64,000 bases of DNA from Limnothrix sp. BL-A-16 (lineage in GTDB: Bacteria > Cyanobacteriota > Cyanobacteriia > CACIAM-69d): NCBI GenBank assembly GCA_041937175.2, contig CP166615.1:1280001-1344000 (forward strand), read 5' to 3'. A program made the position numbers. Below, in pieces: positions 27,001-33,000 of the stretch; within the stretch, counting starts at the first letter, position 1; each line of letters begins with the position of its first letter.

Positions 27001-30000
27001 TATTCCAGCGCGAGTGGGATGTTTTGCTGGTTTCTATCCTTTCCGGCGTTGTTTTTAAAGGATTGGATTGTTGGGTTGGGTCGGGGCGATCGCAGTCCAG
27101 CGGGGACGGTGCAACCCAGCCTGATCGTGGCAATAATGCAGGATTTAGGGCGATCGATTCAATCCCTGGGCACAACGGCCCGCCAATCCTGGATTGGGTT
27201 GGGGGTGTGGCTCGCGGCGATGGCGGCGAATTTGCTGCTCTATTTTTGGGATTATCATAAACCGCCCAGCCACCCGAGTTTTGTGGGGCCCCTGCAACAC
27301 CCGATCGAGGGGTTGAAATATTGGCTGGCCCTGATGGGGGCGATCCTGGGCTTTGATGATTTGGGGTTGAGTCAACTGCTGGGGGGCTTGGGTCTGCTGG
27401 GCTTTTTGGGGTTAGTAATATTGGCTTGGCGGGGCGATCGAGTGCGATCGTTTGAATGGGTAATTTTTGGGTGCTATGCGATCGGAACCGACGCGATCGT
27501 CACTCTGGGGCGGTTTGGGTTTGGGCCCGATTCTGCGCTGACTTCCCGTTACCAAACCTTTTCGCTGTACCTGTGGATCGCGATCGTTCATCTGTCAGCA
27601 ATTTTGCTGCCAAAGTTCACCCAAAATCGGCTACCAAAATCTTGGCGAAAAGGTCTAGTCATTTTTGGATTAACTCTATTTTTGGTGCTTCATTACGCCA
27701 GTTTTGCGATCGGGTCGCGAAATTTGGCGAACTTCAGCCGTGATCGCCATCAGGGCAAGGCTTGCTTAACGTTTATTGGTAGTTTTCAAGATGAACGCTG
27801 CTTTACAGAGTGGATTTATCCTGAGCTGAATGAGCATGTTTTAAAAACGATCGGGGACGTGAATCGCCTAGGTTTCATTCGGCCACCCCTAGCCCTGCCC
27901 ATGCCGATTAAAAGTGATTTGCAAATCATGGCTAAATCCCAGCCGATCGCCGGAAACTTCCAAACCTTGACGATCCAAAAAAATGATGATGTTTGGGAAT
28001 ATGTGGCCGGCGGCGAGCTGACCTTGGGTGGGGGCTGCCAACCCACACGATCGGTTTTGTTGGCTTACGAAAAAGACGGCTCAACGATTCCCTTCACAGC
28101 GGCCAAAGTGGGCAAAAACTATCGCGGTATGGGACAAATTATCGGTGATTTTGTTTGTCCTAATAATCGCTGGAGCAAGAGTTTTGAGCTAGAAAAATTG
28201 GTGTCTGATCCCCAAAAGCGGCTGGAGATTGAGCGATCGCCCAAAATTACCGCTTGGGCCTTCGACACCGATCGCGGCACGGTCTATCCCCTCGCCGGTT
28301 CCTATTCTTTCCCTCAAAAATCCTCATGAGCGAGCCAATCTATCGCAACCCCGCGCCGACGGTGGATCTGATCATTGAATTGGTCGATCGCCCCCACCGC
28401 CCGATCGTCCTGATTGAGCGCAAATATGACCCGCTGGGTTGGGCAATTCCCGGCGGCTTTGTGGACTATGGCGAATCGGTGGAGGACGCAGCCCGACGGG
28501 AAGCCCTCGAAGAAACCTGTTTGGCGGTGAAGTTAATCGAGCAATTTTATGTGTATTCCGACCCGCAGCGGGATGCGCGCAAACATACGATGAGCGTGGT
28601 GTTTATTGCGGCGGCCACGGGCGATCCGCAAGCGGCCGATGATGCGCGAAATTTCGCGATTTTTAATCCTTGGGAGCTACCTAAAAATCTTTGCTTTGAT
28701 CACGATCGCATCCTCGAAGACTACCTCCGTTACCGCTATTATGGACAACGACCTCGCCCCTAAATCGTTGTCTATGCTGTCAGTTTTCGCCACCGATAGT
28801 CATCCCAGACAAGGGGCTTAAGCCCTTTGTCTCTGGTGGATGATTGAGCCTTTTGCCTTTGACAATTTTGCTGATTTCTTGTTACTTGCACCACTCTGAA
28901 ACCGATCATGTCTAAACAAGTGATTCAAACCGACAAAGCGCCTAACCCCGTTGGCCCATATAACCAAGCGATCGTGGCCAATGGAATGCTATTTGCCTCG
29001 GGTCAAATCTCCATTGATCCAGCCACCAATCAGCTCGTCCATGAAGGTGATGTGGCAGCCCAAACGGAACGAGTGATGCAAAATCTACAAGCAGTTTTAG
29101 AAGCTGGGGGAACCAGTTTTGCGAATGTGGTGAAAACCACGATTTTCTTGGCAAATATGGATGATTTTGCCACGGTGAATGGGGTTTATGCCAAATACTT
29201 TGATGAGGCAACGGCTCCGGCTCGCGCGACCGTGGAAGTGGCTCGTTTGCCCAAGAATGTCTTAGTAGAAATTGACTGCACTGCCATTGTTGACTAACGA
29301 TTCATGCCCGATCGAGCTGTGATTGACAGGGCAGTATTTCGCAGCCGATAAACCGGACGATCGAGCCGGCCCCCAGGTCAATCAATCTAAGATCTCGATC
29401 TTGCCGGTTGTGCCATCCAGCCGCAACAGTTGCCCCGTGCGGAGTTTTTGGGTGGCGTTGGGAATGTCCATCACCGCTGGGATCCGATATTCCCGCGCCA
29501 CAATCGCCCCGTGGGACAAACGCCCCCCCGCCTCGCAAATGAGGCCACCCGCTCGCACCAGGAGGGGCCCCCAAGCCGCATCCGCATGGGGAATTACCAA
29601 AATGGATCGCTGATCGATCGCCGGAGCCAGGGTCAGTTCACTCAGCGATCGAATCACAATCACGCGCCCCTCCACCCGGCCGGGACTGCCCCCTAACCCA
29701 CGCAGGGTCGATCGCGCCGCCGCCGCACTCCACTCCAGCGCACAAAGGGGCGGCTCTTGGCCATAAACCAACGGAGCGGCCGGCGTTTCGCACCAATCGG
29801 CAAAGGCCTGGCGGCGTTGGGCAATCCGGGCGGTCAGAATCCGCCGCAGGTTTTGGTTTTGGGGGTGGGCCACCCATTGCCGGATTTCAGCTAATTCCAG
29901 ATAAAAAATATCGCCTTCCTGCTGCAACAGGCCGATCGCCTGCCACTGCTGTTCCAGAGCCACAAAGGTCCATCGCAGTTGCGCCAGCAGTTTGTTGTAG

Positions 30001-33000
30001 AGTTCTGCCACCTGCCCTTTCAAATCCAAACGACGCTGGGCGATCGAAGTTTGGCGACGAGGGCTACTGGGCTGGGTGATCGGGGCTTTGGCCAACTGCA
30101 ACAGCAGGGTCTGTGGAATCTCCACCGCCTCGCGCCAAGTGGGCACGGCCACATCGGTTCCCACTTCGCTCAAATAGCCATAGGTGTCCAAAAACACCTG
30201 AAAGCTGGCGAGAATTTCCCGCCCTTCCGGTGACTCCGCCAAGGCTGCCCAAACGGCCGGGGCCTGATCCAAGGCGCGAATTCGCTCCAAGGACAAAACC
30301 GCTTGCATTCGTTGAGCCAAATTCTGAAGCCAGCGGGTGGCGGCCACTTCCGGGTGGCGGCTGGGATCCAGTTGCTCCGGTTTGCGGCGACCGATCGCCT
30401 GGCGCAGGGCCGCACTCAGGGGGGCCAAAATGCTGTACTCCGTGGCGCGATCGAGCAGCCCCATAATTTGCTCTGCCCGCACCAACAGGCGTTCCGGCTC
30501 CGAAAACTGTTCTGCTGGCAGGGTTTCCAGGTTTTGGAGTCCGGGTTCAAACCACTGTTCCCAGTCGCGCTGAAACGATCGATCTAAATTCCATTCCCGA
30601 CCCAATAGCCGCCACAGCCCCGGCAAGTTGCGCAGGGTGGCCGTGAGGGGTGGCCGGCTCATTTTGCCCCCGTGGGTGAGGGCTTCCAAACTCTCGGGCG
30701 GCAAGCCCATCCGCCGAAACAGATCCGCCAGCAGGGTGACGTTGAAATAGGCGCGGCCGTGGAACAGGGTGGCCGTTTCCAAAAAATCTAGCCCCGCTGC
30801 CCGATCGCCCAAAACCAGCGTGAACAGCCGCCCCCAAGCTCCGCAGGTCATCGGCCGATTAATAGACCAAGTGAGGGGCCGAATTACGCCGGGAATGGCT
30901 TCCGCGGCCATCCGCCTTGTCCAAATGGGTAGCAGGGTGGTGATGGGGCGAGCCTGCAAAATCCATAGGTGCTGGCCGTCAAAAGTCCATTCCACATCCT
31001 GGGGAATGCCGTCAAAGTGAGATTCCAAGTCCCGCGCCAGCAGGGCCACTTCTCGCACCAACCAGCCGGGTACGTCACCGGTTCCGGTTTCGGCGGTTAG
31101 GGGGCGCGTGCTGGTGGCGAGGGCCCGCAATTCTGACTCGATCGACTGGGGCGGATTGGCCGGGCCCGGAAAGGCAACCGATCGGGACTCTCGCCAGGCC
31201 GTCACGTCTAATTCACTCAGATCAATCCGGTACGATTCGGGGGTGATGCGCCCGGAAACCACCTGGGCGGCGGAACCGGGCAAGGCTTCCACCAAAACCG
31301 CTTCGCCCTGTTGCGTCACGGGATCGCGGCTGAAGGCCACTCCCGAGAAGGCTCCGGCAATTTGTGGCTGCACCAGCACGGCCATGCTGGCATCAGGCAG
31401 GTTGCGATCGCGCCGATACTCGATCGCCTCCGGTGCGTCATAGGAGACAAAAACCACCGCCGCCGCTTCCACCAACTCCAAGGGGGTACGCACATCACTG
31501 ACCGTGCAATACAAACCAGCGGCGGCCGAGCGATCGCCGTCTTCCCCGATCGCGGACGATCGCACAATCAAAGGCGGATCAAAAATGGCTTGGGCCACCC
31601 CTTCGGTTAACTCACCCTGGCCGGCTAGGCGATTGGCCAACAGCACGGGATCATCTCCCGGCAGCAAAATCCAACCGGGCAAAACCGGATAGCCCCAAGC
31701 CTTCAAGCGGGACAGGGTGGCGGCCTTTGTGCCGGCCCGTTGTGGATCCAAAGGTTGATCGAGAGAGAGCATTGAATCTGCCTTGCCTTGAAAAAAGCCC
31801 ATGGCCCCTTGGGAGCCGGCGGCCGCTCCCGATCGCCCCAAGGCCAGATCCTCGGGCATGGTTTGGCAAATCCAGGCCAGCAAAGCCGCCACCAACATAG
31901 CCCCCACCACCCGATCGACCCCATTGGGGTTCAGCAACCCCAACATCAGGGGATAGAGCGCCAGGGCCAGCAGCCGACTGGTTTGGCGATCGCGCGTGAA
32001 AGCAAACCCGGACACCGACAACAACCCCGTCAACAGCGCTGCACTGGGTTCATGGGCGATCGCCCCCCAAGTGGCGTTAGTCATGCCCGCGCCTCGGCCC
32101 ACCCAATAGCGCCCCAAAACGACACCCCCGATCGTCAGCCATTCCCAGCCCGACTCGATCGGGAAAAACTGCCGAGCCAACCACACCGCCCCCAAGCCCT
32201 TCAGGGCCTCCCCCGACACAGCCAACAGGCCCCACCAGGGCCCCCCATGGTAAAAAGCCGCCGATACACTGACATTTCCCGTGCCCAACCGTCGCAACCG
32301 TTTGCCCGTGCCCCAACGCACGATCCAGTCCGTGAGGGGCAAAGCGCCCAAAGCCGGACAAAGGGTTAGCAACAGTAGAAGGCCCAAGGTCTGTTCGCTG
32401 GTCATGGATGGCAACGGTCGAGGCAATGCTCAAACTAACTGTGGGAACTGACGAACTGCCACCTGTCCCCGGGAACTGAAACAAATCAGCCCTTGGCTTT
32501 CCGTCGTTTGTTGCTGGCTGAATCCCGTGATCTGATAGCCCGTGGTGTCATAAAAGGTCACCATTGCGCCCTGTCGCAGGGCCAGGCGATTGAACGACGC
32601 AAAATAAGCATAGTCCAGATGGTTTTGGCGGCCTTGAATTGAGGGCTGGCCCCAGTCTATGGGCCACCAGCAATCGCCCGCCCCAAAATCCATGGGGGGC
32701 ATGGGGTTCCACGAATACAGCGGTTGGCTAGAGGGTTGGTTGAAGGGTTGGCTAGAGGGTTGGCTTGAGGGGGCTGGACTGGAAGGCTGGCGAGATGGCT
32801 GACTGGGTGGGGCGATCGGGGCGCTTTGAAATTGCACCTGGGTTGAGTGGGAAACACCCGACGGTGGGCTTGCGGGGAATTCTGTCGCCCCAGTTTGGCA
32901 CCAGTCCTGGTACAAGTCCTGGCACAAGTTGGCTACCCGAGCTTTCAGGGACTGATTAAACAGATCCCCAATCATCAGCATTCCTCCCTGCATCCATTGG

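Follow-up and report, generated by a model that had tools for sequence, protein, structure and literature searches.

The minus strand of the 64,000-nt window, the whole stretch of Limnothrix sp. BL-A-16 DNA that was analysed, carries one intact gene in which a PlsY-like membrane domain with a remodelled pocket is fused to a three-domain dikinase of the Rph/PigC type. Residue patterns suggest that ATP could load His965, which would then phosphorylate a lipid bound in the PlsY-like domain's pocket, making the protein a membrane-integral, ATP-driven phosphotransferase; we put this reading slightly short of an even chance. If true, the fusion would represent phosphorylation or activation of a lipid in the membrane, in place of PlsY's normal job. 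Read from the ATG at 32405, the gene encodes 1007 aa without internal stops, and the Pfam matches of the protein are G3P_acyltransf (residues 16–178, 1.6e-15, 58 bits against a cut-off of 24), PPDK_N (276–491, 1.7e-37) and PEP-utilizers (931–1001, 7.2e-21), values essentially equal to those of the genome-wide survey's note, whose description of the fusion as such holds. The features are as follows.

29382–32426, minus strand: open reading frame (ORF list)
29382–32405, minus strand: whole gene, 1007 codons plus stop at 29382–29384 (ORF list, translation)
31836–32405, minus strand: PlsY-fold seven-helix membrane domain, residues 1–190 (PF02660, hhalign, Foldseek, pLDDT)
32241–32285, minus strand: remodelled PlsY motif 1, GTGNVSVSAAFYHGG, residues 41–55
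32076–32114, minus strand: remodelled PlsY motif 2 or phosphate-hole loop, GRYWVGRGAGMTN, residues 98–110
31764–31835, minus strand: linker, residues 191–214 (pLDDT 48–62; conservation)
30930–31763, minus strand: ATP-grasp nucleotide-binding domain, residues 215–492 (PF01326; alignment to RPH-Lm)
29736–30929, minus strand: central helical domain, residues 493–890, homologue of the Rph substrate-binding domain (profile alignment to 5hv2; MAFFT; hhalign)
29385–29735, minus strand: phosphohistidine swivel domain, residues 891–1007 (PF00391; alignment to RPH-Lm 783–867)
29511–29513, minus strand: codon of His965, which aligns to RPH-Lm His825 and is predicted to carry the phosphoryl group
32430–33137, minus strand: upstream ORF of 235 aa on the same strand, ending 24 nt before the start codon

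The AF2 model of the 1007-aa protein has a mean pLDDT of 82.5 and a pTM of 0.59, with the membrane domain mostly at 80–93. A conserved PDDL (184–187) in the last residues of the membrane domain precedes the linker, which has a conserved FF pair at 204–205; the linker is long and of low confidence in the model, which establishes no fixed contact between membrane domain and dikinase. Judged by alignment, the ATP-grasp and swivel domains carry the Rph residues that move the ATP beta-phosphate to a histidine, here His965, which lies in the swivel-domain stretch GGRLSHGAIVA (29496–29528). Conservation was counted over 133 aligned family members: H965 is present in all 133, S/T301 (Rph T136) in 132, and R282 (Rph R117) and K227 (the likely equivalent of Rph K22) in 131 each. 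In NCBIfam and the PDB, the top relatives are Rph, PigC, RedH and PEP-synthase-like proteins. RPH-Lm (5FBS/5HV1; NF041857) has the same order of ATP-grasp domain, helical substrate domain and C-terminal swivel His (its H825, R117 and T136 correspond to H965, R282 and T301; the profile E is 1.1e-76); the profile alignment to 5hv2 runs as one stretch, 263–980 to 98–879, and the non-membrane part of the AF2 model matches Rph 5hv1 with a Foldseek E of 8.7e-28. An Rph orthologue was rejected as an identification for the fusion, which scores 188 bits on the Rph model against a cut-off of 999, at about 19% identity, and gives no sign of a rifamycin substrate.

Two differences from RPH-Lm stand out, namely the extra N-terminal seven-helix membrane domain of the fusion and the absence from the whole family of a counterpart to the Rph motif R666-E667-K670, as judged by HMMER profile and, with two Rph-like proteins included, by MAFFT and hhalign, although the region in which R666 and E667 are mapped aligns weakly (low HMMER posterior, hhalign probability 94%). 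PMC4844700 describes Arg666-Glu667(-Lys670) as essential for the second phosphotransfer of Rph, and PMC13534948 reports that HapC keeps an Arg equivalent to R666. With the motif missing, the acceptor site could be a different one; its absence also weighs against the dikinase part making the survey's acyl-phosphate at an Rph-type central site, where Rph needs the Arg–Glu pair. At the same time, given its conservation (89 of 398 columns at least 95% conserved), the central domain may itself hold substrate, as in Rph.

Profile comparison and predicted structure both identify the N-terminal domain as a true PlsY homologue with the PlsY fold (hhalign to canonical PlsY, probability 99.6%, E 6.6e-24; Foldseek of its AF2 model to PlsY 5xj7, TM 0.77, rmsd 2.8 Å over 187 columns). 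With aaPlsY (5XJ5–5XJ9) it shares the seven-helix fold, the G-x-G-N motif, equivalents of Asn37 and Thr41, a Gly-rich loop 3 and D/E-x-x-K-G in helix 2, but not the G3P site. All four residues of the G3P phosphate clamp are replaced or deleted (S35 by T42, R45 by Y52, K104 by A106; N180 deleted), and neither 2-OH binder is kept, H177 having been deleted and S142 having no conserved equivalent; PlsY motif 3, which holds H177 and N180, is absent, with I-Y-Q-K-I-P-D-D-L-D-L in its place, and the domain is joined to a roughly 800-residue cytoplasmic enzyme. On the other hand, the acyl carbonyl/oxyanion contacts are kept (Asn37 as N44 in 129 of 133, Thr41 as S48 in 127 of 133), as is the Gly-rich phosphate loop G-K/R-G-A-G-T-T-N, five residues shorter than PlsY's, and H92 is an Arg (R99) in 130 of 133. 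In motif 1, T42, N44, S48, A49 and H53 are near-invariant, and the former G3P pocket has near-invariant residues of its own, T42, Y52, H53, R138 and R140.

These roles of the PlsY residues at the clamp, 2-OH and carbonyl/oxyanion sites are taken from PMC5700162, according to which single changes at G3P-site positions of aaPlsY lower activity by more than 90% or increase Km 5- to 36-fold. Canonical G3P acylation by the fusion protein appears very unlikely on this residue pattern, and the survey's self-contained route into glycerolipids, if it were to run through G3P acylation, is not supported, given the lost clamp and 2-OH binders. Acyl-phosphate-type chemistry is still plausible because N44 and S48 are kept; the two could be retained for structural reasons.

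The fusion forms a conserved cyanobacterial family: 128 of the 394 good genomes that were sampled in the phylum have it, each as a single copy, and it is encoded at 673 species loci. It was not found in the other 266 of the sampled genomes (among them all 33 of one small-genome family), and is therefore dispensable for core lipid synthesis. Among 8000 scored candidates, 2522 are homologues at E<=1e-5, full-length ones being about 50% identical; PF02660, PF01326 and PF00391 occur together in all 120 of the homologues listed. Public databases name the family glycerol-3-phosphate acyltransferase, and our literature search found no published work on a PlsY-dikinase fusion. The survey had allowed that the PlsY-like part may only be a membrane anchor. 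Yet its conservation matches theirs when set beside the catalytic domains (pairwise identity 68% on average, against 62–71% in the other domains; 45 of 190 columns at least 95% conserved; 22 polar residues at least 93% conserved), which argues against a mere anchor. A search with this N-domain subfamily gave 107 representatives at E<=1e-3 in 1.84 billion proteins, the strong matches being fused proteins or fragments, so that it occurs almost only fused. In decayed copies from two related genomes the PlsY-like and dikinase motifs are eroded together, with His965 changed to Gln in one. Not every residue of the pocket is universal, since a more divergent subfamily has Y52 replaced and R138 and R140 lost.

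In the phosphotransferase reading, the ATP beta-phosphate would be moved to His965, with AMP and Pi as expected products, and the swivel domain, on a flexible tether, would deliver the phosphoryl group to a lipid head group in the remodelled PlsY pocket; in PlsY itself, this pocket has its cytoplasmic opening midway into the inner leaflet. Since the pocket appears to have lost the G3P site and kept the acyl carbonyl/oxyanion residues, the shortened Gly-rich loop and several cationic side chains, a free fatty acid is our preferred substrate. Its product would be an acyl-phosphate, and the protein a membrane fatty-acid kinase feeding a separate PlsY/PlsX, an assignment we consider possible but doubtful; a lipid alcohol (mono- or diacylglycerol, polyprenol) might serve instead. 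The substrate is in either case a guess from residue patterns.

Ordinary plsX and plsY do exist as separate genes in the same genome, as the survey had said, the canonical plsY at C1:847898-848461 with the motifs GSGSTGATN..R and RHKANISRL, together with a true 831-aa PEP synthase; DegV/FakB was not found in the complete genome. The likeness to FakA/FakB of Gram-positive bacteria would be one of inferred function only, to supply PlsY/PlsX with acyl-phosphate made from free fatty acid; the two are unrelated in sequence to the fusion, which would couple ATP to AMP and Pi through a phospho-His. A precedent for the fusion is discussed in PMC5700162, namely PlsY joined C-terminally to the fatty-acid-binding FakB/DegV, one component of a system that produces acyl-phosphate. 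Against the kinase reading, cyanobacteria already have Aas to activate free fatty acids (PMC10114076). Lipid genes adjoin the fusion gene in three separate clades, clade-specific and none universal: a GDSL lipase directly upstream in 13 loci and divergent within 1 kb in 17, a Hydrolase_4 lysophospholipase-like gene directly downstream on the same strand in six (one more at 695 bp), and a DAGK_cat/YegS_C lipid kinase downstream in four. In the window itself the neighbours are unrelated to lipids (RidA, NUDIX, SpoT, an unknown ORF). Of 99 distinct neighbour types, three are such lipid genes, where the frequency of these families in this genome would predict about 0.5, a rough and post hoc comparison. 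The survey's lipid-recycling idea is partly supported: it gains from these neighbours, and its acyl-phosphate part from the kept oxyanion contacts, while G3P acylation is not supported.

It is unlikely, though the foremost of the rival readings, that the protein is an Rph-like, membrane-tethered small-molecule kinase, with an amphipathic metabolite, pigment or xenobiotic in the central domain and the PlsY-like part localising, gating or regulating it. The central domain is homologous along its length to the Rph substrate-binding domain and strongly conserved, a flexible linker fits a tether, and the characterised Rph-family enzymes have small molecules as their substrates (rifampin, prodiginine precursors, hydroxyphenylethanones). 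However, the Arg–Glu pair for transfer to such a substrate is missing, a mere anchor would not keep its polar residues so well, the N-domain subfamily occurs almost only fused, and the conserved residues sit exactly at the PlsY active-site motifs.

An ATP-driven acyl ligase, in which the dikinase would phosphorylate a fatty acid and the pocket then acylate a nucleophile other than G3P (lyso-lipid, glycolipid, glycerol, small metabolite), would be the survey's idea with another acceptor and strikes us as improbable. N44 and S48 matter for acyl transfer and not only for binding, the pocket's own near-invariant residues look as if made for a new acceptor, and the neighbouring lipases would provide fatty acid as well as lyso-lipid. 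PigC, HapC and RedH, of the same dikinase family, offer a parallel: phosphorylation of an oxygen prepares it for attack by a second substrate, and condensation follows. They are soluble, however, and the PigC and RedH models, though among the best matches, score far under their cut-offs (192 and 197 bits against 1300 and 1350); no prodiginine genes lie near the fusion gene. Moreover, the divergent subfamily shows that the putative acceptor site is not universal, and no conserved neighbour indicates a candidate acceptor.

Far less probable is a sensor or regulator using the His relay for signalling, with no lipid product. A PPS-like regulator is described in haloarchaea (PMC10948481), and the neighbours in the window include signalling genes, SpoT/RelA and a histidine kinase; but these are not conserved elsewhere, Pfam and NCBIfam found no DNA-binding or output domain, and the ATP- and His-site residues are all kept as in enzymes. 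Least probable of all is a second ordinary PlsY making lysophosphatidic acid from G3P and a dikinase-made acyl-phosphate, for despite the above-cut-off PF02660 match and the database name, all clamp residues and both 2-OH binders are altered, at positions costly in aaPlsY (PMC5700162), and the genome has a canonical plsY with the full set of motifs at another locus.

Outside the Rph group, glucan water dikinase and the HpeHI kinase use an ATP-grasp and swivel-His relay to phosphorylate a hydroxyl of a non-pyruvate substrate in an added module, but their substrate modules are others (carbohydrate-binding modules, separate subunits), with no membrane domain. Phenylphosphate synthase follows the same ATP-grasp and swivel-His logic on a non-pyruvate substrate and is not known to have a membrane domain. 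The 235-aa upstream ORF, with no Pfam or NCBIfam match and not conserved beside the gene elsewhere, is possibly co-transcribed with the fusion gene.

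The fusion gene occupies a minus-strand ORF at 29382..32426, in which an ATG at 32405 opens a stop-free frame of 1007 aa. The genome-wide survey's note had described a PlsY-like membrane domain joined to a Rph/PigC-type dikinase in a genome with separate plsY and plsX genes, and this description holds as written. The single long ORF encodes three Pfam domains, G3P_acyltransf (PF02660) at residues 16-178 (1.6e-15, 58.1 bits against a cut-off of 24.1), PPDK_N (PF01326) at 276-491 (1.7e-37) and PEP-utilizers (PF00391) at 931-1001 (7.2e-21), while elsewhere the genome (4.56 Mb, two contigs, 100% complete) has a plsY of the ordinary kind, complete in its PlsY motifs, and likewise a plsX. 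An AlphaFold2 model built with 40 family members as input (mean pLDDT 82.5, pTM 0.59) had low confidence only in the linker (about 190-215) and a few loops. When compared with the PDB in Foldseek, the N-terminal domain matched PlsY 5xj7 (TM 0.77 normalised to PlsY, rmsd 2.8 Å over 187 columns) and the residues after the linker matched Rph 5hv1 (E 8.7e-28). Compared profile to profile with canonical PlsY proteins in hhalign, the N-domain reached a probability of 99.6% (E 6.6e-24), and between them Pfam, hhalign and Foldseek assign to this domain both the PlsY family and the seven-helix PlsY fold; in the ESM Atlas it found ordinary PlsY clusters alone, every one below 0.9. A complex prediction between the membrane domain (1-190) and the dikinase (215-1007) scored 0.00 against a mark of 0.32, which is evidence neither way. 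A promoter/terminator scan gave nothing exceeding shuffled controls, and the contigs of one metatranscriptome matched parts of the fusion gene at 95-99% identity, which does not amount to evidence of transcription.

The available text of the structure paper on aaPlsY, the solved acyl-phosphate:G3P acyltransferase, describes a G3P phosphate clamp made of Ser35, Arg45, Lys104 and Asn180, further G3P contacts at Ser142 and His177, acyl-phosphate contacts through His92, the hydroxyl group of Thr41 and the loop 3 backbone (residues 104-107), and Asn37 as the proposed oxyanion stabiliser (PMC5700162). These positions were mapped onto the window protein by two independent and concordant routes, phmmer to aaPlsY and hhalign to a PlsY profile, and conservation was read from an alignment of 133 full-length members (P0002, those of P0004-P0122 that reach 900 aa, and a further 13 fused proteins of greater divergence; P0003, 99% identical, was left out).

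Active-site positions of aaPlsY, their equivalents in the window protein, and conservation in the family
S35: T42, 130/133
N37: N44, 129/133
T41: S48, 127/133
N42: A49
R45: Y52, 122/133
H92: R99, 130/133
K104: A106, 126/133
Loop 3: five residues shorter, kept as G-K/R-G-A-G-T-T-N, with K or R at 104 in 120/133
Motif 3 (H-x-x-N-x-x-R-L; H177, N180): absent, with W-I-Y-Q-K-I-P-D-D-L in its place
Other conserved residues of the membrane domain: H53, 124/133; R138, 132/133; R140, 127/133

In both alignments the phosphate clamp Ser35/Arg45/Lys104/Asn180 is not kept in the window protein and the N180 region is missing altogether. Neither are the binders of the G3P 2-OH, Ser142 and His177, the former position being variable in the family (T/Q/R/K). 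On the acyl-phosphate side, the sequence alignment keeps the equivalents N44 and S48, replaces His92 with Arg and shortens loop 3. Because the replacements are nearly invariant and the mapping is consistent, we infer that the G3P site is lost while residues on the acyl-carbonyl/phosphate side are retained or conservatively altered, in a pocket that is predicted to remain cationic. The route into glycerolipids that the note had proposed, in which an intermediate made by the dikinase is handed to the PlsY-like part, is thereby made very unlikely in so far as it would run through G3P acylation: the clamp positions are T42, Y52 and A106, and motif 3 is gone.

The dikinase part, by comparison with rifampin phosphotransferase (RPH-Lm), has the Rph-type features of an ATP-grasp domain with ATP-phosphate residues and a swivel domain with a carrier histidine. 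H965, present in all 133 members, aligns to the catalytic His825; R282 (kept in 131) aligns to Arg117, and T301 (S or T in 132) to Thr136. K227 (131/133), in the motif G-x-K-A-A-x-L, is taken to equal Rph Lys22, by motif only. Homology across these ATP-site and His-site residues makes it very likely that the protein still performs the first half-reaction (ATP to phospho-His, AMP and Pi). Between the two domains lies a helical central domain, covered by a continuous profile alignment of residues 263-980 to RPH 98-879, and no Pfam match to PF02896 (PEP-utilizers_C), the PEP/pyruvate TIM barrel, was seen in the window protein.

The acceptor side looks different. Transfer to rifampin in Rph requires Arg666-Glu667 and is assisted by Lys670, according to the available text (PMC4844700), and the equivalent of Arg666 is described as retained in HapC (PMC13534948, available text). 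A HMMER profile alignment places E801 and V/L802 at the Arg666-Glu667 positions with low posterior probability, MAFFT L-INS-i with two haloarchaeal Rph-like proteins bearing R-E-[FY]-P-K gives the family a 7-residue deletion of the motif, and hhalign with the same two proteins gives the same deletion (probability 94%). The Arg-Glu pair (with Lys670) is absent from the family in all three alignments; because the stretch aligns weakly, we call its loss probable.

Several identities could be set aside. The best NCBIfam models were PEP-synthase-like PRK06241, RedH, PigC and Rph, every score being far below cut-off: against the equivalog cut-offs the window protein reached 188 bits of 999 for Rph, 192 of 1300 for PigC and 197 of 1350 for RedH, so that it does not qualify as an orthologue of any of the three. 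A PEP synthase (PpsA, TIGR01418) is rejected at 135 bits against 740 and by the missing PEP-utilizers_C match, and a true PpsA-like ORF of 831 aa (414 bits to PPDK_N) is found elsewhere in the genome. A G3P acyltransferase of the ordinary PlsY kind is very unlikely on the clamp residues and 2-OH binders. Neither of the database names in use, glycerol-3-phosphate acyltransferase and pyruvate, water dikinase, suits the residue evidence. Among solved structures, the closest are those of Listeria rifampin phosphotransferase (1.4e-39 for the sequence alone, 1.1e-76 for the family profile). A plasmid search for Rph-like sequences returned 6 records.

Conservation was then compared between the parts of the protein.

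Mean pairwise identity, and share of columns at least 95% conserved, by domain
Membrane domain (1-190): 68%, 24%
Linker (191-214): 55%, 8%
ATP-grasp domain (215-492): 65%, 25%
Central domain (493-890): 62%, 22%
Swivel domain (891-1007): 71%, 28%

The survey had cautioned that the PlsY-like part may only be a membrane anchor. Its conservation equals that of the catalytic domains, with 22 polar residues at least 93% conserved, which argues that the membrane domain is not a mere anchor.

Of 394 high-quality genomes in a sample of the phylum, 128 gave a match to the N-domain query, including 46/46, 25/26, 6/6 and 12/21 members of four large-genome families and 0/33 of a small-genome family. The gene was single-copy in 127 of the 128, and 125 of 129 places lay in open frames of 916-1229 aa. 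The four short frames do not represent two-gene (split) versions: a 1-nt frameshift interrupts the linker at the I-Y-Q-K / P-D-D-L-D-L junction (genome G329, locus L085, 5240-5290), a second copy is broken into ORFs of 591, 211 and 326 aa in a genome that also has an intact 1011-aa frame (G247, locus L087, G247:C12), one copy is truncated (G377), and one frame is cut by a contig end (G101). A scan with one genome per species found at least 673 loci encoding the fusion, and among the 80 loci kept, all those with an organism name were cyanobacterial, bar one MAG labelled Tatlockia. When the N-domain by itself was searched exhaustively against 1.84 billion representatives, only 107 proteins came up at E<=1e-3, of which the strong ones were fused or fragments; ordinary PlsYs were reached at 1e-6 to 1e-3 only. 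A few apparently genuine standalone forms of about 200 aa occur, such as P0149, on a 7.6-Mb contig, and P0230, from a Gloeobacterales MAG.

Two lineages depart from this pattern. A divergent subfamily (loci L094-L096 in genomes G139, G257 and G293), which standalone P0149 resembles, belongs to a family of 6-8 Mb genomes (25/26 sampled) and keeps T42, N44, S/A48, H53, R99, a G-x-G-G-G-x-T-N loop and W113, while I or V stands in place of Y52 and R138/R140 are missing. Helix 4 of its N-domain is followed by an insertion and G-D-D-M-A-L replaces P-D-D-L-D-L, with the dikinase nearly unaltered (of the conserved positions, 82-85 of 89 in the central domain and 32-33 of 33 in the swivel domain are kept). 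The other lineage consists of decayed sole copies in related genomes, L097 (G127:C1:1346500-1350300) and L098 (G251:C1:5331300-5335000), whose frames are intact. In these, membrane motifs 1 and 2 are gone, 26 of 33 conserved swivel positions are left, and in L097 the phospho-carrier His965 is Gln. Such joint decay of membrane and dikinase motifs, though a single evolutionary event, is what coupled function predicts.

Of the 80 loci fetched, ORF calling recovered the fusion gene in 77; counting the window as well, there were 78 sources, and 144 immediate neighbours were compared (70 upstream, 74 downstream). The survey's statement that there are no conserved neighbours stands insofar as none is universal among the 78 sources, but recurrent, clade-specific neighbours of lipid type were seen. 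The commonest neighbour type occurred at 18 of 77 loci, all from heterocyst-forming, Nostoc-type genera. In such genera a GDSL lipase/acylhydrolase gene lies upstream at 13 loci (divergent within 1 kb in 17), and seven loci of the same clade have a cupin downstream (about 111-117 aa, the next same-strand ORF in L012, L021, L028, L030, L048, L049 and L055). In Leptolyngbya/Phormidesmis-type genomes and cyanobacterial MAGs, a Hydrolase_4 alpha/beta hydrolase follows on the same strand 21-136 bp downstream at six loci and 695 bp downstream at one more; we take this family (PF12146) to hold monoglyceride lipases and lysophospholipases. A DAGK_cat + YegS_C lipid-kinase-like gene lies downstream at four loci, three of them at 61-81 bp, and upstream neighbours include a psbA-like gene (four loci) and bactofilin (three). 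Lipid hydrolase/kinase types make up 3 of 99 distinct neighbour types against about 0.5 expected, given some 20 genes of the three lipid families in this genome, and this excess, from a rough post hoc calculation, is suggestive.

ORFs around the fusion gene in the window
23747-25396 (+), MutS2-like, first part of MutS domain V
25297-26430 (+), MutS2-like, remainder of the domain plus MSSS and Smr
26452-28329 (+), 625-aa ORF
29382..32405 (-), fusion gene, 1007 aa
32430-33137 (-), 235-aa ORF with a Pro/Ser/Gln-rich middle

The window neighbours (RidA, NUDIX, SpoT/RelA, an ABC-2 membrane protein and a family-less ORF) gave no functional clue. The 235-aa ORF, unrelated and on the same strand, ends 24 nt 5' of the fusion start, and neither it nor the 625-aa ORF matched a Pfam or NCBIfam family. 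The MutS2-like gene at 23747-26430 (+) is read in two overlapping frames, which suggests a frameshift or a sequencing error.

Homology places the elements of an ATP-grasp/swivel-His relay beside a PlsY-fold pocket, and the tethered phospho-His domain could hand its phosphate to a lipid head group held there. The aaPlsY active site sits half-way into the cytoplasmic leaflet with its G3P side open to the cytoplasm (PMC5700162, available text), and the former G3P entrance of the fusion protein would face the cytoplasm as well. Our tentative reading, held at a little under an even chance, is that the family phosphorylates a lipid which its PlsY-like domain binds. Three points together favour an acyl or carboxyl substrate: the kept carbonyl-side residues (N44, S48) and phosphate loop, the loss of the G3P clamp and probably of the Rph-type acceptor site, and the lipase neighbours in two clades. 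In our preferred case a free fatty acid would become an acyl-phosphate and be passed on to the separate PlsY or PlsX; a fatty acid specifically, as the substrate phosphorylated in the pocket, is a conceivable but doubtful choice. Similarly doubtful is the corresponding enzyme, a membrane-integral fatty-acid kinase or ATP-driven CoA-/ACP-independent acyl ligase in which phospho-His would make acyl-phosphate in the PlsY-derived pocket. Fusions of PlsY with FakB(DegV), reported by the PlsY structure authors, offer a precedent (PMC5700162, available text); DegV was not found in this genome. Against the lipid pocket count the long flexible linker, the possibility that N44 and S48 are structural, the presence of Aas in cyanobacteria (PMC10114076, available text) and the apparent lack of the gene in two-thirds of the genomes sampled across the phylum.

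The strongly conserved central domain also counts against it, since this domain may hold the substrate; the protein would then be a small-molecule kinase of the Rph type, tethered or regulated by its membrane domain, an unlikely reading given how well the membrane domain is conserved, though a serious one. In-situ acyl transfer to a new acceptor appears distinctly less likely, a signalling role is very improbable, and ordinary PlsY activity, with the G3P clamp and 2-OH binders replaced or absent, can be practically dismissed.

The fusion is one of known domains in an undescribed combination: as in the survey, we found no paper on a PlsY-dikinase fusion in published full text, and the PlsY structure paper, in its available text, restricted its Pfam search for fusions to the PlsX/PlsY and PlsY/PlsC types and reported PlsY-DegV alone (PMC5700162). 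New here are the residue-level retention on the acyl side, the probable absence of the Rph Arg-Glu pair, a membrane domain conserved equally with the catalytic domains, the clade-specific lipid neighbours and the two divergent lineages. A protein that at least 673 species genomes encode, and that several large-genome families have in almost every member sampled, marks a gap in cyanobacterial lipid metabolism. In its available text, a 2023 review gives Aas as the cyanobacterial route of free-fatty-acid activation and BrtB as activation-independent use, and states that cyanobacterial PlsX and PlsY lack detailed characterisation. Were an acyl-phosphate or other lipid phosphate made in the membrane, it would be a new entry into lipid recycling, bearing on the engineering of fatty-acid-secreting strains, and would mean that a dikinase His relay can work together with a pocket inside the membrane and that proteins of the PlsY fold have uses beyond G3P acylation; a fatty-acid kinase or acyl ligase would be, for many cyanobacteria, a second and hitherto unrecognised route, beside acyl-ACP synthetase, for re-using free fatty acids released by lipases.

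A metagenome scan with the distant standalone PlsY-like protein P0234 found two loci, each a glycosyltransferase/O-antigen-ligase cluster without a dikinase. There a standalone PlsY-like gene of the P0229/P0234 type with a degenerate G3P motif (L089 1273-1917, L090 6004-6618) lies between three GT4 glycosyltransferases and a Wzy_C O-antigen-ligase-like gene, with a lipid A acyltransferase nearby, and the PlsY fold may have been co-opted for work on glycolipids or polysaccharides as well.
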